From an uncultured Christensenella sp. (GTDB lineage Bacteria > Bacillota > Clostridia > Christensenellales > UBA1242): a stretch of 59,959 bases of DNA. The notes below the pieces were generated by a model. That model was not told where the DNA came from. It was given only the letters and a program-made list of their open reading frames with translations, and ran no database searches. The stretch covers positions 1-59,959 of the forward strand of contig CAYSUG010000004.1 of NCBI GenBank assembly GCA_964434145.1, read 5' to 3'. This document shows positions 8,780 through 59,959 of the stretch, one piece after another (positions within the stretch are counted from its first letter, which is position 1; each line of letters begins with the position of its first letter). A program made the position numbers and the translations under genes.

Positions 8780-8891
8780 AATTCCATTCCTCAATTATAT
8801 AGATTAACAAAGCAAATCTTTTTCAACATTTCTTGACAAGTTACCATCGTCCCTCAATTCAAGGATAGTATCTGCAATATAATATATTTGT

Positions 8892-23273: not shown

Positions 23274-23306
23274 ATTATACCATCCCCCCCCCCCCCCCAG
23301 GTGCAA
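23274..23306 (-). promoter_or_regulatory. candidate promoter TTGCAC-(21 nt spacer containing G15)-TGgTATAAT
   Basis: On the minus strand, TTGCAC is at 23306-23301, followed by CTG, G15 at 23298-23284, ATGG, and TATAAT at 23279-23274 (TGn extended -10). Confidence 0.6.
23284..23298 (-). repeat. homopolymeric G15 tract (C15 on the plus strand)
   Basis: Counted directly: 15 consecutive C at 23284-23298. Confidence 0.95.
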
Positions 23307-23450
23307 CTAAATAAGCGGCATAATCTATAATTTTGCGACAATTAGCCGTATTCCATTGTTAATTTTGCACGATTATTATACTACAAAGACTCCAATATTA
23401 ACACATGTATATACACACAGATGACTTGTCTAAATATAATCTATGTGTTA

Positions 23451-23779: not shown

Positions 23780-24001
23780 ATGGCAAAGAATTCTGATTAT
23801 TTTGGTTTGAGTAGAATTATTAGCTTGATCCTAGCAATCATTCCAGTTACATCATGGATCTGTGGTGCTGTAACAAGATTTGCGGAAGGCAAGATTGTTG
23901 CTGGTCTAATCAGATTAATCTTTGGTTTCACTATTGTGTGGATCCTAGACTTAATCTTCATGATTTTGAACGGCAAGATTTGCAGACTACTTAACGTTTA
24001 A
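23780..24001 (+). CDS. small two-TM membrane protein (73 aa), unknown function
   Basis: A strong SD (AAGGAG), two hydrophobic helices, and its own terminator. Confidence 0.65.
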   Translation: MAKNSDYFGLSRIISLILAIIPVTSWICGAVTRFAEGKIVAGLIRLIFGFTIVWILDLIFMILNGKICRLLNV

Positions 24002-42100: not shown

Positions 42101-45100
42101 ATGATATATGTATAGTTGTCATAAATTACATTGATATTACCGCCAGTATTGTTGCCAGAAGGAGATATAGCTCCAGATTGATTAGCCAGGATTGTGTAAG
42201 AATGCAAGCCAATTGTCATACTATATGATTGTGCCAAATCTTTGCCAGTCGTTGTGTCCCTATTAGGCTCTGGCACAGCCATGGATATCTGTATATAATA
42301 ATCAGACTCACCCCTAACAATCTCAGCGTCAAATAATACAGCGCTTAATTTCATGAATGTAAAATTTTCACTATAATTACTCTTTAATGCACCACTATTT
42401 GGTTGGCTCTGAATAGATATAGTATATATTCCAGATTCTTTGCCAGCAAAGTTAATAGCACCGCTATGTTCATCACTAGGCTCATTATTGATAATATAAT
42501 TGTACACATATCCAGCATTATCATTACCACACCAAATGGTTGTAGCATTATTAATTATCTGGATGCTGGATATCGCCGTAGCCTTCGATATATTGTTTAC
42601 GCCGCTAACGCTATCCAATATTGCCGAACTATTTGCCATATAGTATATATTAAATTTAAAGTCTCCACTAGGCAATAGTACCTCTTCTCCCAACTCATTC
42701 ATTACCATGACACTAGCAAAATCTATAATAATATTGTCACTGACTGTGCCTGACTGGAAGTCATGTGTATAGATATATGTATTCTCGCCTTGGACAAAGT
42801 GTAACTCGATTGCTTGTGTATTGTTATCCGCCTTAGTAGGATCCAGCGTCAACTTCAAATTGCCATTATAATAACTAACCCCGTACTGATCATTAGCAAG
42901 CTTGGACAATGTATCCTTGTTACGACCTTCTATAATGGCCATATTAGAGATATAATCATCACCTACGACTTGGATAGTTGCTACGATATTATTGGTCTGC
43001 CATGTCGCCATTAGTGTACCAATAGCCTCTATTGTGATAACATATTTGCCACCTTCTAATATTAAGTCACTAGAATCCTTAATTAACTCTTTTGAATTAT
43101 TACTATTGGAGGCGTCTGTCAATGTAACGATATACTGACTAACTTTGTCTACACCACCAACCATATTATTGGCTGTAAATGAAAGTTTTAGATTCTCTGT
43201 CGCATTAGCACCGGTAATAATATCTATAGTCGCACTCAAGTCGGCAACATCCGATAATTTGTGGAATATATACTCTGTTGCCTTGCTATTCAACTTACCA
43301 CTCTCTACCGCAGTCAGAATCATTGTATGCTGACCAGCAGACAAGGATGTCGTATCTATTACTCCACCTTCTCCATTGTATTTGATAGCAGAGCCAGAAT
43401 CTATTGTGTATGTATACTCTACGCCATCAGCGACTGAGATGCTTAGTGCCCCATCACTAACTGATGCTGTAGGTGCAGTAGACAACCTAATATCTGTTAG
43501 TTCTGAGACTGACTGATTAGTCACAAGTAGGTCACCGCCAATATAACGTAGCGTTGCTGTGTATATCTTGACTTCTTCTAAGGCTGTTGGAGCATAAGAA
43601 TAACCATTCTTCAGGTCGGTTGGAGTGATTATCTTACTTTCTACAACTTTGCCTTCTGCATCATATATTATTAACTCCGCAGTCGCCTTAGTATCAATTT
43701 TATCTTTTGGCAATTGTATCTTGCCACCCACTATAGACATAGCATTAGGCTGAGCTAAGAAGTTGATTGTTACAGTACTAGTTGTATTATTAGTAATGTA
43801 GCCAATCTGGTCTGTAGACAATTCTTCTATAGTACTACCCACAACAGATGCCATCGTAATAGTAGCATCGTCACCAGTTATTCCTAATCCGCTATGATCT
43901 ATGATCAGAGTATATGTGCCAGCACTATATGTTATGCTGTAACCTTCTGCTGAAAGAGCGCTATTGGCTACAACCACATATTCTTTTGTTACATTATCAC
44001 TAGTCAATCTAATTATATACTTGCTAGCCAGATCTGTGTCTGTATCGTATTTGTTCTTCGCATCCCAAGTAATGACATATTGCGATATCTGATATTTATC
44101 ATTCGTATCATAAACTATAGATGCAGATATGGTAGAACTAGCCAACTTCTGCAACGTATACACATCAGACTCATCACTAATTAATGCACCAACCTTGCTA
44201 ACACGAATTGCGAACTGCTGTTCGCCAGTAATATTATTTATGTTAGCTAGCTTTTTGCCGCCCTTGTTATATGCTGTATATGTATAGCCTTCTCTTCCTA
44301 CTATCTCTGCCAAACCATCACTTAATACAATTTTTTCTGCTATATCAGTTCCAAATACAGCATTCTTAGTAATTGTCATATCTGTTGTCGCTGCACTAAC
44401 CACCCCTAATCTTCCTGTTTTATTTAGCTTGATAGTATAGCTATAGGTGCCAGCATCAAATGCTGCAAAATCCAGAATCAGCTTGCCGCTAGTCTTTGAT
44501 ACGCCTAGCACGCTATTGTTGGTTCCTGTAATAGCGGACTGAATATTGTTAGTATCAACAACAAATTCTTCGTTATTGATGTCTAGGATAACTAAAGTAT
44601 ATCCACTAGGCAATGCACCTAGATCCAATTGCATTGTATCATTTATGGCAATCTTGCTTGTATCAAATGCATTGTGATATGTAAATGTAGCAGTCATACC
44701 ACCTGTGCTATTATACGCCACATCGTTGGCATCATCTATTATTCCTACTGCATGGATATTAAGCTCACAAGTTTGCCCAGCCGTAACAAAGCCTATTTCT
44801 TTCAATTTTGCAATATCCAGTGTATATACGCCATTACTTGCAGCCAGTGCATATTCCGCCACATCATTCTTAACTGCATCGTTATACAACACTGAAGTAA
44901 TAGTAGAACTAACCCCATCGATATTATAAATCAATGTGTTATTATTAGATTTGTTAGTAATAGTCAACACATATATACTAGTTACATTGACGCCATCCAT
45001 CTTGTGGTTATAGAATGTTAATTCATCTTCGCTGACGAATGTTAAACCTGCAGTAAAAGCCGTATTCCTAATCTCGACTATATTACTTGCTCCTGAAGAC

Positions 45101-48100
45101 AAGTAATAGTTGTCTCTACTAGATGCAGCACTGCAGACTACATAGTATGAGTAATTACCAGAGGTGATATTATCAGCAATGACCACTCTGCCCTCTGACT
45201 CGCCTAAATCTATATCTTGCTTAGAGTAAATTGCACTTGTAGTTAACTTCCTATACACATCATACTGAATACCAGATATTTCTGTATTTACCTTTGCAAA
45301 GGTAGGCCTATTGACTCCTTCAATACTAGTTATACTTAGTTCCACTGGAGCCAATTTGGTTAGTACAAACACTTTTGTTTGGCTATCTAGCACGAATCTT
45401 GTGGTTAATTCATTGAAGTCTGATGAGATATTACCAGAAGCCATCACACTGGCATTATATTCACCTGCAGATACAATTACATTCTTAGTATCATATATAG
45501 CATTCAGAGGATTAGTGAACTGTGCCAAGATATCAGAAGATCCCGCTGGCATATCTATGCCCAGTGTTATCTTGGACATATCAGACGAAGTAACATTGTT
45601 TAATCTTATCTGATAGTCTACAACCTCCACGCTAGGCTGAGCCAATCTTACTATTGTAATCTGGCTAGCAGTGCTACTAAGATACGCCATATCGCTCGAT
45701 TGAGTATATGTAGCATTAGTATATGACGACATCTCAAAAAGATATTCGCCAACACCTGTAATCCCCAGTCCGCTTTCTCCTATAGCAATATCTGCGATAT
45801 TGTAACCATAATACAAGTTGTTGATATTAGTGTTAAGAATAGCAGAATTACCCACGCTATTTATTGCATTGACGACATAGCGGATATTGTCCACATCCTC
45901 TATTTTGGATTTCTCCCACACAATATATTGTGCATCATTCAAATCTATAACAGAGAGTATTGTCTTAGCCAATTTCTTGAACTTGATTGCTGCACTATAC
46001 TCGCTATCAAATGCACCAACCTTCCTTACCTTGACCCTAGCAGAATATTCTATTCCGTCTAATATATTGTAGTCTGCCAAATCTAACAAATCCAACTTGT
46101 TAACACTACCACTAATGTTTGATACATTGAATTCTTTTTTAGTAGATGCAGAAGATATCTCTACAACATAGTTACCAATGATACTATCTGCAAAATACAT
46201 TGTATCGTCTGTAATAGTTATATCAGATATTGCAGATAGTTTCACAATAGTGCCAGAATTAAAATTAGATTGCAGGATCGTTGAACCACTAACCAATCCC
46301 ATTACAGACAGTGTGATAGTATTATCACCTGAAACCAAAGCCTCCTCTATCTCTGTGCCAATATAGCTTAGATAATTCTCTCCATTATTAACTATAACAC
46401 TAGCACCGCCCACTGAGACCTTGTAGGATATAGCACTATCTACGCTATCCCATACTATCTTGTCTCCAGCATCGTTCAGTTTGATATTATCAGTCTCCGC
46501 GAATTTATAGAACCCAATTGTTGTTGCTGCACCAAATACGCCTCCGACACTAGACACTGACTCAATGGTTATGACATATGCATCGCCACCTACATTGCTA
46601 GCAATCTTGTGATAACCCACGAAATTATCTAGCTTATCAATAACATTAATATTGTCATTGGTTGTAACAACATCTGAATATGTGGATGCCCCTATTTGAT
46701 ATGTAACGTTATAAGATGTAGCACCTGCGACCGCGTCAAATGATAGAATGCCGTCTTTGCTCAAGCTCACCCTAGTAGGTGCACCTATTGTCTGATAAAC
46801 TCCACTCTTTTTAATAGTAGTTGTCTCATGATTGATAGTATTATTGTGACCCTTGGAGAAAATATATAGGTCATAAGTACCAGACTCTGTAATAATACTC
46901 TGCAGATCTACCTGAGAAGAAGTAGTTGCTGTCTTTGTAATAATATTTTTGTCAGATACGAACACTAACTCTATCTCTTCAATATATTTTTCTGATGTCG
47001 CCTTAGTAGGAATTGTATACGACAAAATACTACCGTTGATAGTTATGCCAAATGCATCTACAGATGGCGTATATTCACTTAAATCCACCTTGCTACTAGC
47101 CGCCACACCACTATCTATGACCAAGACATTGTCTATAGCCGCATTGCTATCCGCCCCCAGATCACTACTATTCATAGGCATAAATGCGGATACTGTCACA
47201 ACATATTGATTGAAGTCCCCATTACTCCTAAGATCGGATAATACACTAGATGTAAGGTCAAAAATTGGTGTATTGTCTAATCCACCAAAGTCATTATAGT
47301 CTACAACATAATTCTTAGACAATGATCCGCTAACAATATTGACCAAATAACTAATCTTTCTACGCACGGACGCATCGTCTATAGCATGACTCCATGATAT
47401 CCTCGTTGGACCATATGTAGTTACACTATTTGATCCAATTACAACATTCGCAGTAGTCTCGTTGGTGTATGTTACTGATACCGGGTCTAGAATTGCCACC
47501 TTAGTAACATTAGTAACTGGACTATCGAAAAACTCTATATCGTCCTCTACCACACTATTAAGGATGTTTGTATAATTAGCCCCTTTGTCCACAATTGTGG
47601 CACGGAACGATATGTCATATATCTTATCATCACTTCCTAGAGACGCCAGAGACCATGAATCTATTGCCGAGGTCTGCCTATACAGATAATCTGTGTTATC
47701 ATCTATCGCCTTGAACGCCACAACAGCCTTAGCATTGGAGTCTATACCTTTTAGCTTAATTTCTCTATCCTTGAAAGAATATGTAGGAGTGTCTAATATA
47801 TAGAACTTGTACTTATCACTCTTCTCACCACTGGTTGTGAGTGTATTATCCCCTAGTGCTTGTATAGTAATCTCATTAATAGTACCAGTATAGAATCCAC
47901 CAGCAACATCTTCTAACTTGAATGACGACACACCCGCCATAGTTGTATAATTGATACTCTCGCTCTTACCGTTAATAGTGTATTGCAGCTGAACTGCATA
48001 TTTGATCTTGCTAGCATCTATTGCCACATTCTCAGTATTGCTAGTAACAGGCAACCACGAAATTTCACTGCCATTATATTTCACATTGGTCACTTTGTTC

Positions 48101-48564
48101 AAGGTAGATGGCTGAGTCACAACGACCTTGACACTGCTAGACACGATTGTATCACCGCCAGATTTATCTGACACTGCCGCAAAAGTAATAGTCACAGGAG
48201 TATTACCACTAGGCATACTATTCACGCTAAATCTAACAACCCCAGTCTGCTCGCCATTAACATTATCTTCCGCCTTGGCTGTAATAGCCGAATCGCTAGT
48301 GGTTACCACTATATAATATTGATCCAGATTGATTGGACTAGCGACATATTTCAAAGAAAACTCATTGACATTATTTAGGTTAACCACAAATGTCTTGTCC
48401 TCTCCGTCAGATATATCCACCAGATTGTCGTCATTGGCCATTACATCTATACTCTCTACAGTATAGTTGGGTGGCTGCTTCATCAAAGACGCGACTAAGC
48501 CAATCGTTAACCCTACTATCGTTATACTCATGATAATCAAAATTATTTTTACAGATTTTTTCAT
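36118..48564 (-). CDS. giant N-terminally anchored surface protein (4148 aa): many FN3/Ig-like modules plus a C-terminal GLUG-like beta-helix domain
   Basis: A single 12.4-kb ORF with SD GGTAGGTGAG and signal anchor MKKSVKIILIIMSITIVGLTIGLVASL. It has at least 14 modules with a recurring [IL]xW..V..A..Y signature, for example ISWLPVTS, KIVWDSVDSAISYKV, VIKWNDVSATRYNL, ILTWDTVANIDYYKL and TLSWEYVRNVNYEI. Confidence 0.9.
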   Translation of the reverse strand: MKKSVKIILIIMSITIVGLTIGLVASLMKQPPNYTVESIDVMANDDNLVDISDGEDKTFVVNLNNVNEFSLKYVASPINLDQYYIVVTTSDSAITAKAEDNVNGEQTGVVRFSVNSMPSGNTPVTITFAAVSDKSGGDTIVSSSVKVVVTQPSTLNKVTNVKYNGSEISWLPVTSNTENVAIDASKIKYAVQLQYTINGKSESINYTTMAGVSSFKLEDVAGGFYTGTINEITIQALGDNTLTTSGEKSDKYKFYILDTPTYSFKDREIKLKGIDSNAKAVVAFKAIDDNTDYLYRQTSAIDSWSLASLGSDDKIYDISFRATIVDKGANYTNILNSVVEDDIEFFDSPVTNVTKVAILDPVSVTYTNETTANVVIGSNSVTTYGPTRISWSHAIDDASVRRKISYLVNIVSGSLSKNYVVDYNDFGGLDNTPIFDLTSSVLSDLRSNGDFNQYVVTVSAFMPMNSSDLGADSNAAIDNVLVIDSGVAASSKVDLSEYTPSVDAFGITINGSILSYTIPTKATSEKYIEEIELVFVSDKNIITKTATTSSQVDLQSIITESGTYDLYIFSKGHNNTINHETTTIKKSGVYQTIGAPTRVSLSKDGILSFDAVAGATSYNVTYQIGASTYSDVVTTNDNINVIDKLDNFVGYHKIASNVGGDAYVITIESVSSVGGVFGAATTIGFYKFAETDNIKLNDAGDKIVWDSVDSAISYKVSVGGASVIVNNGENYLSYIGTEIEEALVSGDNTITLSVMGLVSGSTILQSNFNSGTIVKLSAISDITITDDTMYFADSIIGNYVVEISSASTKKEFNVSNISGSVNKLDLLDLADYNILDGIEYSARVKVRKVGAFDSEYSAAIKFKKLAKTILSVIDLNDAQYIVWEKSKIEDVDNIRYVVNAINSVGNSAILNTNINNLYYGYNIADIAIGESGLGITGVGEYLFEMSSYTNATYTQSSDMAYLSSTASQITIVRLAQPSVEVVDYQIRLNNVTSSDMSKITLGIDMPAGSSDILAQFTNPLNAIYDTKNVIVSAGEYNASVMASGNISSDFNELTTRFVLDSQTKVFVLTKLAPVELSITSIEGVNRPTFAKVNTEISGIQYDVYRKLTTSAIYSKQDIDLGESEGRVVIADNITSGNYSYYVVCSAASSRDNYYLSSGASNIVEIRNTAFTAGLTFVSEDELTFYNHKMDGVNVTSIYVLTITNKSNNNTLIYNIDGVSSTITSVLYNDAVKNDVAEYALAASNGVYTLDIAKLKEIGFVTAGQTCELNIHAVGIIDDANDVAYNSTGGMTATFTYHNAFDTSKIAINDTMQLDLGALPSGYTLVILDINNEEFVVDTNNIQSAITGTNNSVLGVSKTSGKLILDFAAFDAGTYSYTIKLNKTGRLGVVSAATTDMTITKNAVFGTDIAEKIVLSDGLAEIVGREGYTYTAYNKGGKKLANINNITGEQQFAIRVSKVGALISDESDVYTLQKLASSTISASIVYDTNDKYQISQYVITWDAKNKYDTDTDLASKYIIRLTSDNVTKEYVVVANSALSAEGYSITYSAGTYTLIIDHSGLGITGDDATITMASVVGSTIEELSTDQIGYITNNTTSTVTINFLAQPNAMSIVGGKIQLPKDKIDTKATAELIIYDAEGKVVESKIITPTDLKNGYSYAPTALEEVKIYTATLRYIGGDLLVTNQSVSELTDIRLSTAPTASVSDGALSISVADGVEYTYTIDSGSAIKYNGEGGVIDTTSLSAGQHTMILTAVESGKLNSKATEYIFHKLSDVADLSATIDIITGANATENLKLSFTANNMVGGVDKVSQYIVTLTDASNSNNSKELIKDSSDLILEGGKYVITIEAIGTLMATWQTNNIVATIQVVGDDYISNMAIIEGRNKDTLSKLANDQYGVSYYNGNLKLTLDPTKADNNTQAIELHFVQGENTYIYTHDFQSGTVSDNIIIDFASVMVMNELGEEVLLPSGDFKFNIYYMANSSAILDSVSGVNNISKATAISSIQIINNATTIWCGNDNAGYVYNYIINNEPSDEHSGAINFAGKESGIYTISIQSQPNSGALKSNYSENFTFMKLSAVLFDAEIVRGESDYYIQISMAVPEPNRDTTTGKDLAQSYSMTIGLHSYTILANQSGAISPSGNNTGGNINVIYDNYTYIIRLDIDVVDVVDDGDALVSGGGKVYIHDQDISSITITLNNALGYNNTNYTSDKTNGVLSVSTRDITEYSIELNKLDNSNVEFSIDDGKVNVTGLDDVAGLKEANIYFYQDNGDNTYTHQYTWQINANADLLFDADYIKDLTVDVANIPAGDYLVVVNLVGDNGSGYIDADAIVENASIVETPILFVENGVIKWNDVSATRYNLSYVDPSGKNINANSTLISREGQSSQYYFDMSSLDFDAGTYIFSIRAKKDNAITSSVSQTLSATKLDSPTINNVINGKGELTFDRVAYLEWKEIRNASKYYVYDYSANVSYTTDTILVSGEAVYRYAVDLNVMLGQHKYYVMAGGTLDSRNLAEGESYYLNSSNGSNNPDTTKVAVAQILTNTVENIRLEGGILTWDTVANIDYYKLIFTPYTFDSDAEEYEAGIQYITSTTGNTFDIKTIDNGSIQTAEYIKVEIENKTVSNKFLVKATTETHPLNNFVAINTLQDKIFSGLKIENGMIVYNIWADNVAAMVSVANYALGVNLDYTIRDVLNSESFLYSFITPNVTINNVKYQLGDSMFANYSIILKTTDGGSKSFDITQIGNIAEEDWTDCNRIKVEFVLSESFPSGKYTISLSVNGNTFNDTIGDIPQLASLQSQSVTDAFKLTRPGVPRVESSDILIHDDKLVFAPSVDSNSNNVTSYMLTFSPSISSVAIQNAVISTLTTSGVSLDTINNLVVVDIYDLFVAEGGFEDFIPLTAGVNYKISVKALGGSTFLNSDYSNSSTSFKVISAPILQIGNEAITWQIEANVEEYIIYFYNEAGEEIVDARQTLTDVDGKELYTFSDIRDNSNLGAGIYNIKVRAIGNGKNMLSSRLSDSSDFFAEKLAKIQVSVENGLYTWDNATYILRSNAYHTGDALYYGNYIVDVYHNGNFNEAQDRYWITSNSNATKTIFELPEKYLSRSAETGAQNEYTIKVYSNTSGINYLLPNDIHTDIDRYRSDKISGTISIGEDGNISWTDSYNNDYIVFIYSSGNLVYTSGVLKSKSLNIYSLYPQYDSDGVGIGDKFVPNAGSYTIKIKSIDKTNFSDTSPEVKDAILRSVYTADFYIRTIHYPEVRVTDGDISWNTTTSVMGSELAATRITIKGKVYVGDVETEVDTTLKLEFGYDISSFQFQKILAEKISIEIDGTSSADHYKAKFTNDNPNGHGSSTIQFIEGQNYEVSIRFFANENRYNIAFGENTEYVISSEAVMTNFVMLNNPDTAVNPRQYEASTDAKEQSIFSGIPSEYKYSNYIYWEKPNDNVVSYNIEIYTSHSDVLEGAVLRYIYKIRGSIVTLYQIDNNGDLVAMEGDYNTCLSISDDNIYFAMDRTLNTLDSSSIYIYLQSIGDTIESSIAKDSINDTYYLTYHLATETKLAQAMEISLPSTPESLSYDNNGTLSWEYVRNVNYEIVVAYQREDATEATSHYNNITRLIINYDNFSIHSGNYFGDKRAEIDKLRLQVINLLGLNANDYNNRDVFDFQNTENVYYVDIITINSKDVITYSVIDESNDETIYAYYKLRYLSNNITNVTIRAIGNMSVGSGNTSSGDNTSSFISKPTMLEKLSFTLFAGGDGSKDTPFVIKSLNSIEYYIDESCHFVVNTDITETVSATLGLNNQKAFNGVLDGGNYSFNVLISSSSIDEAGSAYYAGLFYNIASTAAVINMNIVLTNNDDNVIDRTVPTYVGVVAIYNYGLIANVNVSGDLVARITSNANAYIGGVVYSNMGTIAYANVSANITETTGAANARLAGIAVYNGYDNINYANAGIYVSSYSGIMTGRNMGVIAAFVYAGTVDRCYNTGTMSGSGTSDYYIGGLVCYIKPQMSVTISNSYVELAGLKITSNAKFGAVYAKYENGSSSCELSNIYTTIDLDSQNSSIDDSATIGGVYANNAGGVTFDRVYYNSNVFKQYTTTPSGIGTYTGDMPDSAYSYDSANPYDIFDNVLGNATNPSIWDLDPLSSNIKVVYRTMNGMGTQE
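36121..37347 (-). other. C-terminal 409-aa GLUG-like / parallel beta-helix domain of the 4148-aa protein
   Basis: GDGSKDTPFVIKSLNSIEYY...FNGVLDGGNYSF...YAGLFYNI...YVGVVAIYNYGLIANVNV...YIGGVVYSNMGTI...YIGGLVCYI. The same module type is found at about 21627-22355 in the 611-aa protein. Confidence 0.65.
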
Positions 48565-51101: not shown

Positions 51102-51791
51102 TTACATTTGTAAATTATTAAGATTGAACACACTCCAAGGGACAGCATCCTCTGGAGGCATAGAGACGAATGTCATAACCTTCTTTGTCGTAGGGTGAAC
51201 AAATCTAATCCTATACGCCCATAGTGCCAAATTGTGTCCCTTAGCAAGAATAGCTCCGCCATATCTGACATCGCCGTACACGGGATGACCAATATGTTTC
51301 ATTTGCACCCTAATCTGGTGACTCCTACCCGTAACCAAATCAACCTTTACTAAAGAAACCTTCTCCTTAGACTGCAGCACTTCGTAACTCAACTCTGCAT
51401 ACTTGGCACCGGTAGTCAGTTCTGGCACAACCGCCACTGTATTGGTCCTAGCATTCTTCTTTAGATGATTCCTTAGTGTAGCCACCCTCTCCTTAGGCTT
51501 ACCATTAACCACCGCCAGATAGCTCTTCTCAAATTCTTTCGTCTTAATGCTCTCTGACAGTCTTCCTGCCGCCTTATCTGTCTTGGCAAATATCATTAGC
51601 CCACCGGTAGGCCTATCCAACCTATGCACTAGCCCCACATACACCCTACCCGGCTTAGAATACTTCTCTCTCAAGTAATTCTCTACCAATTCAACCATGC
51701 AAGTATCGCCAGTAATATCCCCTTGGGTAGGAATATTCTGTGGTTTGATCACAACCAGTATATGATTGTCTTCATATATAACATTTAGCAT
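51102..51791 (-). CDS. RluA-family pseudouridine synthase (no S4 domain)
   Basis: 229 aa with the catalytic motif HRLDRPTGGLMIFAKT and the HQIRVQ motif. Confidence 0.9.
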   Translation of the reverse strand: MLNVIYEDNHILVVIKPQNIPTQGDITGDTCMVELVENYLREKYSKPGRVYVGLVHRLDRPTGGLMIFAKTDKAAGRLSESIKTKEFEKSYLAVVNGKPKERVATLRNHLKKNARTNTVAVVPELTTGAKYAELSYEVLQSKEKVSLVKVDLVTGRSHQIRVQMKHIGHPVYGDVRYGGAILAKGHNLALWAYRIRFVHPTTKKVMTFVSMPPEDAVPWSVFNLNNLQM

Positions 51792-51828
51792 AAATATATC
51801 CTTTGTAAATTAATATACCATTAGTATG

Positions 51829-52083
51829 TTACATTTCCGCATCTTTGTCAACCAAAAACTTGATATCTCCACAGAGAATATCCGAATAACTGAAGCTAGT
51901 CCTATCCAGCATAGTTGCTTCGTCTGGCTTGATAATGAACATACTAGGATATACCTGATCTATAGTTGCATTTAACGTAATTAACTTGTTCCTTCCTCGA
52001 TTTATCACCATTTTTGTAGACTTGCCTTGCAAGCTTCTAACAATCGATTTTACTTCATTTAACTTGATACTACCCACTCTCAC
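51829..52083 (-). CDS. veg: Veg protein (DUF1021)
   Basis: 84 aa. ...VINRGRNKLITLNATIDQVYPSMFII...SFSYSDIL... matches the B. subtilis Veg pattern. The start is GTG. Confidence 0.85.
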   Translation of the reverse strand: MRVGSIKLNEVKSIVRSLQGKSTKMVINRGRNKLITLNATIDQVYPSMFIIKPDEATMLDRTSFSYSDILCGDIKFLVDKDAEM

Positions 52084-52257
52084 AATAACTTAACCACCCT
52101 CCTAATATTAAAATGTGTCAACAAATATACTAAAAACACACTTTTAATATAAATACAAAATTTAGTGCCAAAATATGCCATAATTTAACCAGACAATTAC
52201 TATTGCAACCACAAAAACATACCATTTACGACAAAAAACAAGACTAGAAATCTAGCC

Positions 52258-53298
52258 TTATGTTATATCTTCTAGCCTAATACTCTCGCCAGTCTCTGCG
52301 TCTTGGAACATTACAAAGTATCCCTCACCATTTGGTTTGGTAACATCAATCGGAACCCACTGACTATACCCATCCAACCCATCTGGAACATTGTCCTCCG
52401 CATATGCTGGCACACCATATGCTACATATCTAACAACCTCTAATTCATATATCAGACCTACTACATACACCCTGCCGTTGCCCTCGTAGTCTACTCTGAC
52501 CCACCTAGAATTGGGCACAACAGCGGCTAACCTAGATTCTTCTGGATATGCATCAAATAGTGCATCCAGCTGATCTGCTATCATTTCATAAAAATTAGCA
52601 TCGTCAGTCGCAAGTAGTGAGTCTATCTGCCTATCCACCTCTTCATCACTAGCATCAAATAGTTCTTCCTTGCTCAAGAACTTCACCTCGTCTGAATCCC
52701 TTACGGCAAAGACTTCGTTGCGATCAACAGAAGTGCTCACCCTCTCACCTACTGCATTATCAATACCTAGTTCTGTGTTGACCTCGCCTATATCTTCCTT
52801 TGCCTCTTCTACCTCTTCCATAGATACCGATTCAAACAACGTATCTGTATTCTCTGTAGAATCTTCTACCAATTCCACATCAGCCTTCACACTGTCTAAA
52901 CTTACATCCTTCTTAGCCTCTACCATAGTCGCCTTAGCACGCTGGGTACTCTCTATATACCCCAAAATTGTGGACTTGTAATTAGCAGTCTTGCCAGACT
53001 CCCCCCAGACTATAGCATTTGTATCATTTATTAATACACACGCTATGTCAGAATTTAAATCAAAGTCTGCAGCTAACTTGAAATCATAACCACTAGATTT
53101 TCCACAAATAACGCTCTGCTTGTACACCTTGCCAGCGGCCAATATCCCAAGTGTCATATCTCCTACAAATCTGCTATAATCTCTGAAATTAGCAAACACA
53201 CCAGTTCTGGTGCTAACAATATTAAGAACACAAATATCTTTCTTATCATTAGTCAATAATATTGTCTTCTTGATATAATCCAAGACCAAATCCTCCAA
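52258..53298 (-). CDS. hypothetical protein with a very acidic central linker and a conserved-looking C-terminal beta domain
   Basis: 346 aa. The C-terminus is RWVRVDYEGNGRVYVVGLIY...YVAYGVPAYAE...GYFVMFQDAETGESI. I could not assign a family from memory. Confidence 0.6.
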   Translation of the reverse strand: MEDLVLDYIKKTILLTNDKKDICVLNIVSTRTGVFANFRDYSRFVGDMTLGILAAGKVYKQSVICGKSSGYDFKLAADFDLNSDIACVLINDTNAIVWGESGKTANYKSTILGYIESTQRAKATMVEAKKDVSLDSVKADVELVEDSTENTDTLFESVSMEEVEEAKEDIGEVNTELGIDNAVGERVSTSVDRNEVFAVRDSDEVKFLSKEELFDASDEEVDRQIDSLLATDDANFYEMIADQLDALFDAYPEESRLAAVVPNSRWVRVDYEGNGRVYVVGLIYELEVVRYVAYGVPAYAEDNVPDGLDGYSQWVPIDVTKPNGEGYFVMFQDAETGESIRLEDIT

Positions 53299-53362
53299 AT
53301 CGCAAAAAATTACTACTTTAGATATATTCTATCTTATACAAAAATGTGCTAACAACGAATAA

Positions 53363-53438
53363 AACTCACAACAAAAAGACAATATCCTCTGTCAAATATT
53401 GTCGAAAATAAAAAAAGCTAAGAGCAACAACCCCTAGC
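53363..53438 (-). terminator. two tandem rho-independent terminators after the 196-aa gene
   Basis: Hairpin 1 spans 53417-53438 (8 bp including 2 G-U pairs) followed by T7. Hairpin 2, GACAATAT and ATATTGTC, spans 53368-53393 followed by T5. Confidence 0.65.
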
Positions 53439-53450
53439 ATTTCCTAATAA

Positions 53451-54041
53451 TCAAATACCAGCATAACTAATATTAATAACCACATCCGCAGTAAGTATCG
53501 CATCTAATGACGCATCTGTCACAGACATAATGACAACAAATGTATGACTAGCACCATCCTTTCCCACACTATACCATGCAGAATCCTTCTCACTAGCGCT
53601 ATCCTCACTCACGCCCAGCTTAACAGTAATATTGTCATCCTCTGTCATTCCACTGATGTCTACAGAATAGCACAACCAATCACTGCTTTTCTCTGACAGA
53701 TTAGTAATAGTAAATGAATATACCGCTCTGCCAGTAGATGTAAGAGCCACGTCACTAAATCTAATATAGCCATTATCATTCCTATCTTTGGAAAAAGATA
53801 CATTGCCACTATACCCTTCTACAAAAGGAATCTCTACCCCTTCCATATCACTAGGACTAGCATACTGTCTGCCGTGCGCCACAATTGAACAAGCCGTTCT
53901 ATTACTCTTATAACCAATAGCCATAGATGTAGGTTCGTTCATACTGGATGCAGCTAAGACTAACCCAGCAGTCAAGGACACTACTGCCAATATCAAAACT
54001 ATGCCAACTACACTTATGAGAATCTTATATCTATTACTCAT
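53451..54041 (-). CDS. N-terminally anchored protein consisting only of the family N-domain (stand-alone paralog of the N-terminal modules of 21378..23213 and 58510..59829)
   Basis: 196 aa with signal anchor MSNRYKILISVVGIVLILAVVSLTAGLVLAA. The shared motifs are SM(A/T)(I/V)(G/S)Y, F.DV.L....AVY.F.I.N, NI.VK.G and the terminal I.ISY. Confidence 0.75.
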   Translation of the reverse strand: MSNRYKILISVVGIVLILAVVSLTAGLVLAASSMNEPTSMAIGYKSNRTACSIVAHGRQYASPSDMEGVEIPFVEGYSGNVSFSKDRNDNGYIRFSDVALTSTGRAVYSFTITNLSEKSSDWLCYSVDISGMTEDDNITVKLGVSEDSASEKDSAWYSVGKDGASHTFVVIMSVTDASLDAILTADVVINISYAGI

Positions 54042-54083
54042 AACTCATCCTCTCCCTTACCCAAAAAAATAAACACTACGCAT

Positions 54084-54112
54084 AGTATAGCACAATAATA
54101 TCTAATTTGCAA
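54084..54112 (-). promoter_or_regulatory. promoter TTGCAA-17 nt-TGcTATACT of the 196-aa gene
   Basis: On the minus strand, TTGCAA is at 54112-54107, the spacer is exactly 17 nt, and TATACT at 54089-54084 is preceded by TGC. Confidence 0.65.
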
Positions 54113-54144
54113 CCCCTAATTTAGCCGTATTAGAATGTTGACCA

Positions 54145-54171
54145 GAAAAAGCGGTTTCAATAAAACCGCTT
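54145..54171 (-). terminator. rho-independent terminator after typA
   Basis: On the minus strand, AAGCGGTTT-TATTG-AAACCGCTT is followed by a T-run. Confidence 0.8.
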
Positions 54172-54176
54172 ATAAA

Positions 54177-56012
54177 TCATTCAACATCGATATTATTTTT
54201 CTTTCTAAAATCCGCCCTGCCTCTAAGTGTATGGTCTAGAATAATTTTTCTTATTCTTAGACTTGTAGGAGTAACCTCTAACAACTCGTCATCGTTAAGG
54301 AATTCTAGACTCTCTTCCAAAGTCAGCTTCCTTACTGGCTCCAATCTTAGAGCCTCGTCACTGGCACTAGAACGCATATTGGTCAATTGCTTTCTTTTGC
54401 ACACATTGACAACAATATCATCCATTTTAGGATTAATGCCTACAACCATTCCGCCATAGACCTTGTCGCCAACCGTTACCAGCAATCTACCCCTCTGCTG
54501 AGAATTGAACAAGCCATATTGAATGCATTCGCCATTCTCGTAGGCAATTAGTGTGCCAAAGTTCCTTCTATCTATGTGTCCCTTGTATGGCTCGTATCTC
54601 TCAAAAATTGTGTTCATGATACCCTCACCATTAGTGTCGGTCAAGAATTGCCCCTTGTATCCAAATAGTCCTCTCGTAGGAATCAAGAACTCCAGCTTCA
54701 TTCTGCTACCAGCGTTGGTCATTGTCACCAATTCACCCTTTCTAGAACCCATTGCATTGATAATAGTTCCCGCACAACCCTCTGGAACATCGATAAATAG
54801 CCTATCTATAGGCTCGTGCTTCACACCATCTATCTCTTTGATCAGAACTTTCGGCATACTTACTTGGAATTCATATCCATCTCTACGCATATTCTCTATC
54901 AGTATTGATATATGCATCTCGCCTCTGCCTAGAACCTTGAACGTATCTGCACTCTCAGTCTCCAGAACCTTTAGACTCAAATCCTTAGTAGCTTCTTTTA
55001 AAAGTCTCTCTCTCAGGTGCCTACTAGTACTATATTTTCCTTCCTTTCCACAGAATGGACTATTATTGACCATGAATAGCATCTCCATGCTAGGCTCAGA
55101 TATTTTAACAAATGGAATGGTTGTCACATTATCCTTGTCTGATACTGTGTCACCAATAGCGACCTCTGTACTGCCAGCAATACATACTATATCACCCGCA
55201 ACAGCCTCCTCTACAGGAGTCCTCTTCAATCCGTCGAAGACGAATATACCTGTTACTCTGAATGCTGGCTTTGAAGCCATGCTATCATGATAATTAGTAA
55301 TAGCTAGGTTTTGTCCTACTTTTAGCTTCCCATTCTCTATCTTACCGATAGCAAGTTTTCCTAGATAATCATTCTGCTCTGCAGAACTAACCAACATAGC
55401 AAATGGCTTGGTCTCATCACCCTGTGGCGCATCTATATAGGATATAATAGTGTCAAACAAAGGCTTGAAATCTGTGCCTTGCTGATTAGGATCCTTGGAG
55501 CTAAAGCCATATCTGCTGGATGCAAATACAAATGGGCTGTCCAGCTGCTCTTCATTAGCATTAAGATCCATAAACAGCTCCAATACCTCATCCATTACTT
55601 CCTTGACACGAGCATCCTTCCTATCAATCTTGTTAATAACAACGATGACCTTGTGATTCAACTCCAATGCCTTCTGTAGTACAAATCTGGTCTGTGCCAT
55701 TGGTCCTTCGAACGAGTCTACGACAAGTAACACGCCATCTACCATCTTCAGCACTCTCTCTACCTCTCCGCCGAAGTCCGCGTGTCCTGGAGTATCAATA
55801 ATATTGATCTTCACACCCTCATATGTCACTGCTGTATTCTTGCTAAGGATAGTAATGCCACGCTCACGCTCTAGCGCATTGCTGTCCATTACTCTGTCCG
55901 CAACCTCTTGATTCTGCCTAAACGCCCCGCCTTGCTTCAACAATTCATTAACCAGACTAGTCTTGCCATGGTCTACGTGGGCAATTATCGCAATATTTCT
56001 AATATCTGTCAT
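54177..56012 (-). CDS. typA: translational GTPase TypA/BipA
   Basis: 611 aa. [28 protein letters not shown] and NKIDR are the G-motifs, and the EF-G-like domain order is typical of BipA. Confidence 0.97.
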
Positions 56013-56196
56013 ACAACACCTCGAATTTTTTTGGGAACAAAAAATATTTAAAACAAATATTTCGTCTCCAAACTATAAAAACTGCAATATTTTAGCACAA
56101 GATAATCCAAAAATCAAGATTTATTAGCAAGTAATTCACTTTGTGCCAGCATTATATCAGATTTTTTCAATTTTTAATTTTTTTTGGAAAAAACTC

Positions 56197-56223
56197 TTGA
56201 CAATATATATATATATATATAAT
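56197..56223 (+). promoter_or_regulatory. promoter TTGACA-(AT)n spacer-TATAAT upstream of the 217-aa gene
   Basis: TTGACA is at 56197-56202, (AT)9 at 56203-56220, and TATAAT at 56218-56223. The spacer is 15 nt as assembled. A T-rich UP-like region lies upstream. Confidence 0.6.
56203..56220. repeat. dinucleotide repeat (AT)9
   Basis: Counted directly. Confidence 0.95.
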
Positions 56224-56258
56224 TTTCATATAACCACTATAATAAAGGAGAATAACAT

Positions 56259-56912
56259 ATGGGAATTATAGACAAAGTATCTAACTTCATTGATGACAAA
56301 ATGCATGATGCGGCATTAAAGAAAGACGCAGCAACATATGGGCTAAGTGACACTCACTTCATAGACGGTGACTTTATGAAAAACATTGTTGGTTGGGAGC
56401 CCCTAACATATACTAACGAAAAGGGTACCGCAACAGTGGGCGACGGAATAAGATTCTATAGAGAAAATGCAGAAGGAAAGATGCAGGTCGTTACACTACC
56501 TGGTCTAAGCTCTAGACAGAATGCACCAAAGGCTTCTGGCTGTGCCAGAATGGGAATATCTTATGTCCTAGAGGGTCATGAAGATAAGCTAAAATCCAGT
56601 GCAGATTATCACAAAGTAGAGAACGAAGGCGATGTAATGGACGCCCTAGTCAGCGGAATACACTCTGGAGGAGAACAAATCATTACAGATTACTTCAATC
56701 CAGAATTTGCATCAGCACCACAGACCAAGGCTTTGTTACAGAAATCATGCGAAAAACATCTAGAACAGGCTCAAACGCACAATGAAGAGGCTAAAAAGCA
56801 AGGTAGAAAGCAAGTGTCAATAGAGTCCATCAAGGCACATGGCAAGAAAATCATGGATACACTTGCTAATATCGCCTCCAGATTCCGCCAACACGAGGAA
56901 ATGGGAGAATAA
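56259..56912 (+). CDS. hypothetical soluble protein (217 aa)
   Basis: The SD is AAAGGAG. There is no TM segment or signal peptide, and I recognised no family. Confidence 0.65.
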   Translation: MGIIDKVSNFIDDKMHDAALKKDAATYGLSDTHFIDGDFMKNIVGWEPLTYTNEKGTATVGDGIRFYRENAEGKMQVVTLPGLSSRQNAPKASGCARMGISYVLEGHEDKLKSSADYHKVENEGDVMDALVSGIHSGGEQIITDYFNPEFASAPQTKALLQKSCEKHLEQAQTHNEEAKKQGRKQVSIESIKAHGKKIMDTLANIASRFRQHEEMGE

Positions 56913-56936
56913 CAAAACAAAATAGTTAGGACAAAC

Positions 56937-57749
56937 CTAACTATTTTTCTTTTCTGCTATCTTTTTGGCAAAATCCAACTCCCAGTCGTACGTCTCTGAC
57001 TTCTTGTATTTTGCATATTTGTCTGCAAAATCCCTCTTCGTGTCCTTAGTTATTGCTAAGATATGAGTGTCATATTTCTCCTTATTCGCTGCCAATATTG
57101 CGTCCTTTGCTGCAATATCTTCTGCTGACCCCTGTAGCAGCGTTGCAGTCATATCCTCGTGATAATCCTCTAGTATCTCCATTAACTCACTCTCTGTCAA
57201 CCTTGCCAAATCCCTGAAATCATACTCATCTGTCTTCTCCATGACAGATTTGATAACCACCAACTTCTCAATACTAGACACACCCTTTTCCTTCTTCTGA
57301 TTATATAATGCCAGATCAGCATCACTCTCCGCAATTACGCAATATATCTCGTTATCTAGAAAATACTTACTGCACGCCACATATATCTCATTTTCTATGG
57401 CTTGGGTAAAAGTAGATGAGACAGATATCTGTACGCCGTTATTATCACCATCCACATCTATATATCCCATACTCGCACACAGCTGCAGATACTTTGGCAC
57501 AGCCTCCTCTATGTTTAATCCAACGAATTCCTCACCCGCTAGCATTACCCTAGCCCTGTCATCCACAGGATATATAGTGTCTACTATGTTATTGCTATCT
57601 GTCAAGAACTCTACAGCCACCCCTACATCCAGCCTATAATATCTAGAAGACCGCATAGCTACACCTTCGCTAAAATATACAACTAGTGCCATTATAACAA
57701 AGACTAATATACTGGCAGAAATAAATATAATTTGATGAGATTTTTTCAT
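56937..57749 (-). CDS. single-pass N-terminally anchored membrane protein, unknown function
   Basis: The likely start is the ATG at 57749 (MKKSHQIIFISASILVFVIMALVVYF) after an AGGGGA SD. The extracytoplasmic part is YYRLDVGVAVEFLTDSNNIVDTIYPVDD.... Confidence 0.65.
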   Translation of the reverse strand: MKKSHQIIFISASILVFVIMALVVYFSEGVAMRSSRYYRLDVGVAVEFLTDSNNIVDTIYPVDDRARVMLAGEEFVGLNIEEAVPKYLQLCASMGYIDVDGDNNGVQISVSSTFTQAIENEIYVACSKYFLDNEIYCVIAESDADLALYNQKKEKGVSSIEKLVVIKSVMEKTDEYDFRDLARLTESELMEILEDYHEDMTATLLQGSAEDIAAKDAILAANKEKYDTHILAITKDTKRDFADKYAKYKKSETYDWELDFAKKIAEKKNS

Positions 57750-57841
57750 AAAAATGTCCCCTTTGTATCTCATATTCTTCCCCAAAACAAGGCAATATAA
57801 TCAAACAAGTAATAAAAATGAAATTTTATCAACAATACATA

Positions 57842-57870
57842 TTGACAAATTAAAAATATGCTGATAAAAT
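57842..57870 (+). promoter_or_regulatory. promoter TTGACA-17 nt-TGaTAAAAT for the 179-aa gene
   Basis: TTGACA is at 57842-57847, the spacer is 17 nt, and TAAAAT at 57865-57870 is preceded by TGA. Confidence 0.6.
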
Positions 57871-57904
57871 GCCTCTGTAAAAGACTAATAAAAGGAATGG
57901 AAAA

Positions 57905-58444
57905 ATGAGTAAAATAGTAGAAAAGATAAAGGAACAAATCGCATTAAGAAAAAAAGCGAAAGAATTAAAACTCGAAATCTCTGACCTAAAAAATGCTGAG
58001 AGTGATGCATTTATAGGTTATGTACAGTTTGCAACAAAGCACGAAAATGAGCATGGCAAAGGAAAAAACATCACCGAACGCGAAGAGAAAAAACTAAAAA
58101 AGGCTCGAAAAATTAACGAGAAATTAAGCAAAGCTGAAAAAAAATTGCATGATGTAGAGGAACATATCAGACATCCTTTTGCACCTGAGACCAGCCCAAT
58201 CGACGATGTTTTCATTCCATCAGACGGAGAAAAAAGCAGGTTCTTTCCAATACACGTATCTGCTAACGATGTTTTTATCCCCACAGAGGATAGTGAGAAC
58301 GAGTTAAATGGTGATGGCGAATATGACACATATCTAGATGAGGATGGAAAGCCACTGATTTCTGAAAAGGATTGGAAAGATATCAAACAAGGAAAGAAAC
58401 TACCACTGCCTCCTCACGAACATATAGATACGCCAGAGAAATAA
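57905..58444 (+). CDS. hypothetical K/E-rich protein (179 aa) with an internal DVFIP(S/T) repeat
   Basis: The N-terminal half looks like a coiled coil. The repeats are DDVFIPSDGE and NDVFIPTEDSE. Confidence 0.6.
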   Translation: MSKIVEKIKEQIALRKKAKELKLEISDLKNAESDAFIGYVQFATKHENEHGKGKNITEREEKKLKKARKINEKLSKAEKKLHDVEEHIRHPFAPETSPIDDVFIPSDGEKSRFFPIHVSANDVFIPTEDSENELNGDGEYDTYLDEDGKPLISEKDWKDIKQGKKLPLPPHEHIDTPEK

Positions 58445-58471
58445 AAAAGCCAAAGACAAATTGCCTTTGGC
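58443..58471. terminator. hairpin terminator shared by the convergent 179-aa and 439-aa genes (T-run only on the minus strand)
   Basis: GCCAAAG at 58449-58455 pairs with CTTTGGC at 58465-58471. An A6 run lies upstream on the plus strand, which is a T6 run on the minus strand. Confidence 0.55.
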
Positions 58472-58509
58472 ATATAGTACCTATAAAGATTGGGTACTTT
58501 TTTTATTTA

Positions 58510-59829
58510 CTATGCACTATAGAATCCCCACAAATCAAAAGACACACTAAGGCCTGTAACAGCATTGGGTGTCGAACCAGACACAGCTATAACGAATGTT
58601 ACACTATTCTCAATAAATTCTGAATCGTCAAGACTGTAATAATCAGTAAATTCACTACTATAATTCTCACGAAGTTCGCCATATGTTACAGTCTTGTTAC
58701 TAGATGAGTACGTGGTCAAATCTGCACTATTAGTACTAGTACCTATCTTATATGTATAACCAGAGGTTATAGAAGATAGTGTCATCGATGCCATATCTAG
58801 ACACTTGTTACTAGTCAGTGTATATACATAATAAGTTGTATTATAATAATCAGACTCTGATGAATATATATCATCTTGCAAGATATCTAATGTCTGTGCA
58901 ATAACGGTAGAACCTGGCCAATTGGGATATGTTTCCTTTGCATACATATCTATATATTTAGAATCCAATAAGGTAGTTGGGCTATTATAACCGCCGTATA
59001 CATCAAGAGTAAGCTTAGCAGAGGTATTTAATATATAAATATTTTGACCTACAATACTGGTGGTTAGTGACTTTGTTTTACTCTCCTCAAATGTATTAGA
59101 ATATATATCTTTGCCCAGTTGGATATTGAATCCAACAGAAAGGTCAGCATCCATAGACAAATCATCTGGCTCTAGCCTTAGGATAATAGTTGCAGACTCG
59201 TCCGCTGGTCGAATAGATACATATTCTGAACTTCTCTCTGACAGACAATATTGATAATGTCCACAAACTCCCTCAAAAGTATCAGTATCTGAATTGTAAA
59301 GATAACCATCGACATCATTAAACTCTTTTCCAATACTTACCTTGATGTTATCATCCGCTGTCTCGCCAATTGTATTAACTAGTACACCTAATGCTGGCGC
59401 CTCATCAGTATGCGTATGAGCATAATTCGATGCCAAAGATCCATCATAATCTCCCGCTACCAGATTAGGTGTATCTAGGTTACTGATCTTGAAGCGATAC
59501 TCTACGTATTCACCAGCACCTAACTCAACATCCTCGAATGTAAAGCCACCCTCTACAGACTCATCTGCAGGATGGAATTGTACACTGCCAGATGCTACTC
59601 CATCTGCTCCGTCATCTATTAATACTGTCGTACTTGTACCGCTTGGATTCACTACCTTGGCACTAGCTTCAATCTTCGCATTCACATTAACAGCCTTGTA
59701 TGACACGGTCATGCTATTGGAAACAGTAACACGTGTAGCCACCAGAACCAGTGCAATAGTTGCTCCTATTAACGCAAGAGCCATAATCGCAATAATGCTA
59801 ATTATTATAACTTTTTGTTTTGTTTTCAT
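58510..59829 (-). CDS. N-terminally anchored surface protein, paralog of the N-domain family (439 aa)
   Basis: The likely start is the ATG at 59829 (MKTKQKVIIISIIAIMALALIGATIALVLVA) with AAAGGAG 7 nt upstream. This is the same start context as 21378..23213. The motifs SMTVSYKAVNV and YVEYRFKISNLDTPN are shared with the paralogs. Confidence 0.8.
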   Translation of the reverse strand: MKTKQKVIIISIIAIMALALIGATIALVLVATRVTVSNSMTVSYKAVNVNAKIEASAKVVNPSGTSTTVLIDDGADGVASGSVQFHPADESVEGGFTFEDVELGAGEYVEYRFKISNLDTPNLVAGDYDGSLASNYAHTHTDEAPALGVLVNTIGETADDNIKVSIGKEFNDVDGYLYNSDTDTFEGVCGHYQYCLSERSSEYVSIRPADESATIILRLEPDDLSMDADLSVGFNIQLGKDIYSNTFEESKTKSLTTSIVGQNIYILNTSAKLTLDVYGGYNSPTTLLDSKYIDMYAKETYPNWPGSTVIAQTLDILQDDIYSSESDYYNTTYYVYTLTSNKCLDMASMTLSSITSGYTYKIGTSTNSADLTTYSSSNKTVTYGELRENYSSEFTDYYSLDDSEFIENSVTFVIAVSGSTPNAVTGLSVSFDLWGFYSA

Positions 59830-59892
59830 TCGTTTTCTCCTTTTTTTCATCATACTGCATGGCTCAAAACCGCACCATACAACTATAGTAGC

Positions 59893-59923
59893 AGTATACA
59901 CTACCCCCCCCCCCCCGGGGGGG
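59893..59923 (-). promoter_or_regulatory. candidate promoter region: C7-G13-TAGTG-TATACT upstream of the 439-aa gene
   Basis: On the minus strand, G13 is at 59916-59904, preceded by C7 at 59923-59917 and followed by TAGTG and TATACT at 59898-59893. The layout mirrors 23274-23306. It lies at the window end, so a possible -35 is not interpretable. Confidence 0.45.
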
Positions 59924-59959
59924 AAGGAACGGGGGGAAGGGGTTAAGTTTTGTGTGGGG

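Follow-up and report, generated by a model that had tools for sequence, protein, structure and literature searches.

At one end of the window (the whole 59,959-nt stretch of DNA analyzed, which is an entire contig), a run of 13 G residues lies upstream of a putative surface-protein gene, here called gene A, at 44 to 56 nt from the point where the contig stops. This position raises the question of whether the run is a genuine part of the gene A promoter or a product of the contig end, and what it might do if it is genuine. Our best reading, to which we assign a probability of about 0.6, is that gene A and its paralog in the window, gene B, both encoding putative surface proteins, carry a homopolymer switch in the promoter spacer of the type found at porA and tp0126. 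As part of this reading, the G13 tract would be a real homopolymer inside the -35/-10 spacer of a sigma-70-type promoter of gene A, with the -35 element at a presumed position. The features on which the analysis rests are listed in Table 1.

Table 1. Positions of the features described in the window and at related loci
Feature	Sequence	Positions	Strand	Description
Gene A	Window	58510-59829	minus	439 aa; N-terminal TM/signal helix, beta-sandwich module of ~200 aa, poorly modelled C-terminal part
Start codon of gene A	Window	59827-59829	minus	ATG
Leader of gene A	Window	59830-59892	minus	ACTATAG box at 59883-59889 (common to locus 1 only); SD AAAGGAG at 59837-59843
TAGTG, then -10-like hexamer TATACT	Window	59899-59903, then 59893-59898	minus	Aligns with TAGATGG-TATCAT (L010) and ATGG-TATAAT (locus 1)
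G13 homopolymer, coding strand of gene A	Window	59904-59916	minus	C13 on the plus strand; putative variable part of promoter spacer
Terminal 43 nt	Window	59917-59959	plus	G7-AAGGAAC-G6-AA-G4-TTAAGTTTTGTGTGGGG; unreliable
Gene B (locus 1)	Window	21378-23213	minus	611 aa; paralog of A; starts with GTG
Promoter of gene B, fully resolved	Window	23274-23306	minus	-35 TTGCAC at 23301-23306; CT; G15 at 23284-23298; ATGG; -10 TATAAT at 23274-23279
Paralog C	Window	53451-54041; region with promoter to 54112	minus	196 aa, N-terminal module alone; TTGCAA-17 nt-TATACT; no poly-G; internal negative control
G8 tract of the B ortholog	L010	2910-2917		Spacer of TTGACT-17 nt-TATCAT
Ortholog of C	L008			TTGCAT-17 nt-TATACT; no poly-G; C promoter conserved
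Family locus in MAG SIG400	L005			TTGACA-17 nt-TATAAT; no poly-G
Family locus in MAG SIG400	L006			TTGACA-17 nt-TATAAT; no poly-G
P0007-type promoter	L003	1-12		No poly-G; second promoter type
P0007-type promoter	L004	9877-9912		No poly-G; second promoter type
P0007-type promoter	L009	1-30		No poly-G; second promoter type
P0007-type promoter	L011	2939-2966		No poly-G; second promoter type
P0007-type promoter	L012	3874-3902		No poly-G; second promoter type

On the minus strand, the end of the window reads CCCCTTCCCCCCGTTCCTT-C7-G13-TAGTG-TATACT-GCT-ACTATAG, followed after 39 nt by AAAGGAG-AAAACGA-ATG (MKTKQK...). A preliminary description had reported this layout of G13, -10 box, ACTATAG, SD, and ATG, and rereading the window sequence showed it to be exact; its start coordinate for the tract, 59893, is instead the final base of the -10 box. 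G13 lies 5 nt from TATACT and 74 nt from the ATG of gene A. At locus 1, the minus strand reads TTGCAC-CT-G15-ATGG-TATAAT-C-ACTATAG, followed downstream by AAGGAG, 7 nt, and the GTG start codon of gene B (VKSKQK...). The spacer of this promoter is 21 nt long, G15 lies 4 nt from TATAAT and 70 nt from the start codon, and the -10 box is of the extended (TGn) type, TGgTATAAT. Both tracts are on the same strand, 4 to 5 nt from a -10 box and 70 to 74 nt from the start codons of the paralogs. The order of elements said to be shared by the two loci is present in both, an arrangement accounted for by duplication of the gene together with its promoter. Within the window (60 kb, approximately 37% G+C), G13 and G15 are the only runs of G or C of at least 8 nt, and these two sites are the only runs of 10 or more G residues, compared with 0.01 expected from 100 shuffles. 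The assembled lengths of 13 and 15 may be inaccurate.

Long open reading frames traverse or abut both tracts. A role of the tracts in frameshifting within a coding region was rejected, since strong start codons with properly spaced SD sequences lie 70 to 74 nt downstream and the conserved N terminus begins there in all homologs.

Other features were seen around gene B. Two copies of the 9-mer TACGGCTAA are present in the window, both on the minus strand (23342-23350 and 54121-54129); 0.21 copies were expected, and 1 of 100 shuffles reached 2. The copies precede family promoters, at 36 nt before the -35 hexamer of B and at 9 nt before that of paralog C, and the 9-mer could be an operator or a chance occurrence. 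A 73-aa hydrophobic open reading frame (23780-24001, plus strand) is divergent from B and has a 74-aa counterpart in the same position in contig L010. The 570-nt region between this frame and B contains several palindromes.

Contig L010 (JAZOFN010000127.1 of MAG GCA_054275055.1) encodes P0015, a homolog of B. In L010 and at window locus B, the gene order is the same: TsaD, Ham1, formate-THF ligase (FTHFS, fhs), a small divergent open reading frame, B, and a convergent RNase J. The fhs products of the window and L010 are 74% identical in amino acid sequence, and full-length B and P0015 share 59% identity. As judged from this synteny and these two identities, B and P0015 are orthologs in clearly distinct organisms. 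The L010 promoter reads TTGACT-AA-G8-TAGATGG-TATCAT and has a spacer of exactly 17 nt. Except for a run at the end of an unrelated contig, L007, its G8 is the only G run of at least 7 nt in the related loci that were retrieved. A three-way alignment of the two window upstream regions with that of L010 placed G(n)-TAGATGG-TATCAT of L010 with G(n)-TAGTG-TATACT of A and G(n)-ATGG-TATAAT of B. By this alignment, the promoters of A, B, and L010 are homologous, and the tracts occupy matching positions, which bears out the earlier statement that the two tracts sit in the same place before paralogous genes.

All three tracts are uninterrupted homopolymers of approximately 8 nt or more. At B (TTGCAC-21-TATAAT) and L010 (TTGACT-17-TATCAT), the tract is flanked by hexamers recognizable by consensus as -35 and -10 elements, and in both the -35 hexamer lies 2 nt upstream of the tract. 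At gene A, the -10 side is recognizable and the -35 side falls within the unreliable contig end. The length of the tract differs between related genomes, from G15 in window B to G8 in L010, in what is a single between-species comparison. Since the three promoters are homologous, the tract can be described as located in the -35/-10 spacer, persistent across species, and variable in length. Its retention at the B locus of the syntenic L010 ortholog, as a G8 that gives a 17-nt spacer, argues that it is maintained rather than accidental. The picture suggested by these comparisons is of a spacer G-tract promoter at the B locus that would be older than the split from the organism of L010, with a second copy of that promoter type on the lineage-specific paralog A.

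The sequence beyond G13 has different properties. The last 43 nt of the contig (59917-59959) contain 26 G, 8 A, 8 T, and 1 C on the plus strand, and the maximum in any other 43-mer of the window is 18 G. No TTGNNN hexamer is found in these 43 nt, and one is present in all nine family promoters that were resolved. Because the segment is an outlier in G composition at the contig end and has no TTGNNN hexamer, the most likely explanation is noise from read tails or assembly, set off by the tract. Read outward on the plus strand, normal sequence gives way to C13 and then to G-rich sequence with islands of A and T. In two-colour Illumina chemistry, dark cycles are called as G in the reading direction, and such a pattern is expected upon decay of the signal after a long homopolymer; assemblers leave dead-end extensions of this sort in place at contig tips. 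When the non-G bases of the tail were compared with the upstream region of locus 1 under a model of G overcalling, no significant match emerged (at best, 10 of 17; p ~0.09), and this comparison gave the tail no counterpart. Assembly came to a halt at the tract; the distal 43 nt are untrustworthy and should be neither interpreted nor annotated. The caution given in the preliminary description, that the low-complexity end could be an artefact, is very likely correct.

A more radical explanation is that everything distal to approximately 59903, including C13/G13, is a contig-end artefact, which would leave gene A with no upstream homopolymer. The run does lie near the contig end, the 43 nt next to it stand out as extremely rich in G, and L007, a JGI contig, also ends in G16, an example of a poly-G contig end in a public assembly. 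However, G richness in the outward direction is a property of the last 43 nt and not of the tract: outward on the plus strand, 13 C residues, each requiring real signal, are read before the sequence turns G rich. In addition, the run matches the internal, well-flanked G15 of locus 1 and the G8 of L010, sits beside the homologous TAG(A)TG(G)-TAT motif, and shares a homologous 3' flank with them; the chance that this position is matched by accident is negligible. Two-colour poly-G read tails fit the terminal 43 nt but cannot account for C13 or for its homology to the other tracts. Since C requires real signal and homologs of the tract exist, the C13 run is not a dark-cycle artefact, and we regard an artefactual origin of the entire region as very unlikely.

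The opposite proposal would accept the C7-G13 junction and the G-rich end as real sequence with a function, for instance as a hairpin or cruciform, as a G-quadruplex, or as the C-rich -35 region of a sigma-I-like promoter tied to an RsgI-like gene. The four G runs on the plus strand (7, 6, 4, and 4) could form a quadruplex in principle, and a gene with an RsgI_M domain lies 2 kb away (56937-57785). Nevertheless, C7-G13 and the tail folded no better than composition-matched shuffles (z = -0.46), and a hairpin or cruciform was rejected on this result. At locus 1 and in L010, the corresponding place is ordinary AT-rich DNA that includes a TTGNNN hexamer. Sigma-I promoters carry a CGWA-type -10 box, and none was seen when the minus-strand end sequence was inspected by eye. 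The link to sigma-I and RsgI was rejected, as the syntenic site of contig L008 has the RsgI-like gene but not gene A. A functional contig end is highly improbable in light of these results.

The lengths of the promoter spacers bear on the mechanism. Both hexamers were resolved in nine family promoters, and the spacer is exactly 17 nt in seven of them. The two exceptions are the spacers with a long perfect repeat, namely, that of B with its G15 (+4) and that of L011 with its (TA) run (-2, or one unit); every resolved family promoter without a long repeat has a 17-nt spacer. In L009, whose -35 element is truncated at the contig start, a hand count also gives 17 nt. The confinement of the deviations to repeat-bearing promoters is the pattern that slippage in a spacer repeat would produce, and this arithmetic appears to be the strongest internal support for a slippage mechanism.

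Under the proposed switch, slipped-strand mispairing during replication would lengthen or shorten the presumably hypermutable G run. A change in run length would alter the -35/-10 spacing and, in turn, would be expected to alter transcription. The G8 of L010, with its 17-nt spacer, should be permissive. For gene A, a -35 hexamer placed 2 nt upstream of G13, the distance seen in B and L010, would give a spacer of approximately 20 nt. With spacers of approximately 20 and 21 nt, A and B, as represented in the consensus assembly, would both be expected to be weakly expressed or silent. Either gene could be switched or graded independently of the other, and the presumed exposure of their products would then diversify the cell surface. 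The extended -10 box of B could make transcription less dependent on the -35 spacing and so buffer the effect.

Alternatively, the tracts could be real and yet not act as a switch. They would then be inherited spacer filler or the mutational debris of a duplicated promoter, with expression driven through the -10 or extended -10 element, or from another promoter, whatever the tract length. The TGnTATAAT of B, spacers of 20 to 21 nt that are far from 17, and the fact that most family members manage without a tract are all consistent with this explanation. The promoters of A and B are also common by descent, so that their likeness alone is no proof of selection, and tracts well past the optimum could look the same if they were decaying or neutral. 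On the other hand, perfect runs of 13 to 15 G in DNA of approximately 37% G+C should decay quickly if neutral, and both runs are still perfect despite divergence in the promoter DNA around them and in the proteins (35% amino acid identity between A and B). The ortholog, moreover, retains a G8 that gives exactly the 17-nt spacing. A nonfunctional origin of the tracts is, on this evidence, unlikely.

The products of genes A, B, and C belong to one protein family. The N-terminal part of A is 35% identical to that of B over 127 aa (E = 1e-18), and C, which sits directly downstream of bipA, was found by tblastn of A against the window. Searches of Pfam and NCBIfam gave no match for A, B, or C, and word-indexed protein searches were nearly empty. 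The family emerged from an exhaustive HMMER profile search, which returned 281 cluster representatives (50% clustering) at E <= 1e-3. Among the best 150 of these 281 representatives, the N-terminal module is at the extreme N terminus in nearly all, and the C-terminal extensions of the family range from 0 to more than 600 aa. An AlphaFold2 model of A (mean pLDDT, 57) shows a helix at residues 3 to 31 and a beta-sandwich of moderate confidence at approximately residues 36 to 239; the C-terminal half is poorly modelled. A Foldseek comparison of this model with the PDB gave no meaningful match (TM <= 0.17). From the model, it is reasonable to infer that A is a membrane-anchored extracytoplasmic protein, and it is probably an N-terminally anchored cell-surface protein with a beta-sandwich fold.

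Comparison of L008 5700-6000 with window 58445-59959 showed that the syntenic site in L008 does not contain gene A: pheS-pheT is followed there by a convergent small gene, which is the neighbor of A in the window, and then by the RsgI-like gene. This absence suggests that A arose by an insertion or duplication specific to its lineage, and the gene predicted to lie next to it beyond the window end is pheT. Two giant open reading frames are also present on the minus strand of the window, one of 4148 aa (36118-48564) and one of 1980 aa (2852-8794). Neither has a Pfam match at E <= 1e-5, and they are likely to be large cell-surface proteins of unknown type.

The preliminary description had further argued that the tracts are a conserved and selected feature of the gene family. 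This was upheld for the B locus, where the tract is retained in L010, and not for the family at large, as poly-G was absent at nine other family loci (C, L008, L003, L004, L005, L006, L009, L011, and L012). Among the homologs without poly-G are those in MAG SIG400 and MAG E7361. As far as the compared promoter sequences indicate, the A and B loci have a conserved and probably selected tract, which the family as a whole does not share. ACTATAG was rejected as a conserved element, since it is common to A and B only and absent from L010.

A second type of promoter was observed at the P0007-like loci, approximately 100 nt upstream of the ATG, in the order TTGAC(A/T), a pyrimidine-rich stretch, (TA)n, and TATAAT. 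Spacers of 17 nt occur in L004, L009, and L012, where the repeat is interrupted, and one of 15 nt occurs in L011. Contigs L003 and L009 begin at or within the (TA)n repeat. This repeat may be a dinucleotide form of the same switch or merely a conserved TA-rich spacer. A wider, more doubtful possibility is that the lineage uses simple-sequence repeats in promoter spacers as a general device for a large family of anchored beta-sandwich proteins with variable C termini, with poly-G at A and B and (TA)n at the P0007-type loci. If this were so, a gut or rumen Firmicute would have combinatorial, vlp-like variation of its cell surface, and MAG assemblies would be systematically broken at such promoters.

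Promoter switching mediated by repeats is well documented in a few pathogens, in the genera Neisseria, Haemophilus, Treponema, and Mycoplasma. In Mycoplasma hyorhinis, the vlp lipoprotein genes have poly-A in the -35/-10 spacer and form an independently switching surface multigene family. With spacer homopolymers on a (here putative) surface-protein family, vlp is the closest analogue in the Bacillota/Mollicutes lineage. It differs in having an A-tract, lipoprotein products, and clustered genes, whereas a G-tract, dispersed loci, and an uncleaved-looking N-terminal helix anchor are found here. Literature searches on phase variation yielded no example from uncultured commensal Clostridia. The proposed switch would be of a kind already known, in a lineage and a protein family where it has not been described.

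At porA of Neisseria meningitidis and tp0126 of Treponema pallidum, for which switching by altered spacing is established, poly-G lies between the -35 and -10 elements (PMC7864442). Like those genes, which encode surface or envelope proteins, the putative surface-protein genes A and B have a G homopolymer in the promoter spacer (the presumed spacer in the case of A), with 17 nt as the optimal spacing. Unlike them, A and B belong to an uncultured, low-G+C member of the Clostridiales (Bacillota) rather than to a proteobacterium or spirochaete, and their tracts are 13 to 15 nt long, above the functional range reported for porA and tp0126. The T. pallidum tpr paralogs tprE, tprG, tprJ, tprF, tprI, and tprL each have poly-G in the promoter (PMC7864442). 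There, as here, several putative surface-protein paralogs have a promoter poly-G of their own and other members have none, but the tpr proteins are unrelated to the A/B family. The tprL tract overlaps the -10 element, with the start site 4 nt downstream, and works by a mechanism other than spacing; the tracts of A and B are upstream of the -10 box, in the spacer. In Streptococcus pyogenes M28, a 1-nt indel in the intergenic homopolymer of Spy1336/R28-Spy1337 alters surface-protein transcript levels (PMC7098570). That case resembles A and B as a Firmicutes intergenic homopolymer before a (here putative) surface-protein gene, and it differs in tract composition and promoter geometry and in having been described as strain-to-strain variation in a pathogen (PMC7098570).

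If the tract lengths vary, a family of 281 representatives without a curated domain would become a set of candidate variable surface proteins, possibly helping the cell to escape phage or host. In that case, the breaking of MAG contigs at poly-G runs would point to contingency loci and would be more than a nuisance.

A wider search for poly-G followed by a -10 box had been proposed in the preliminary description. The G10 scan of the window returned the two known sites, and a metagenome scan for G10-N4-5-TATAMT-N1-3-ACTATAG had one match only, at the contig end of L007 (4073-4104). This contig is GC rich, and its G16 end followed by TATAAT-TAC-ACTATAG is a chance match to the pattern. Exact-protein look-ups of A, B, and fhs gave no match, a scan of viral contigs found nothing, and a comparison of the window with Rfam was negative. 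Window 51390-58578 is matched at 100% identity by Logan contigs of SRR14307658, which places the same strain in that sample; these contigs end at 58578, short of the tract. Elsewhere in the window, a perfect (AT)9 lies at 56203-56220, in the divergent intergenic region between bipA (start at 56012, minus strand) and a gene for a 217-aa product (start at 56259, plus strand); it is the sole TA or AT run of at least 5 units in the window.
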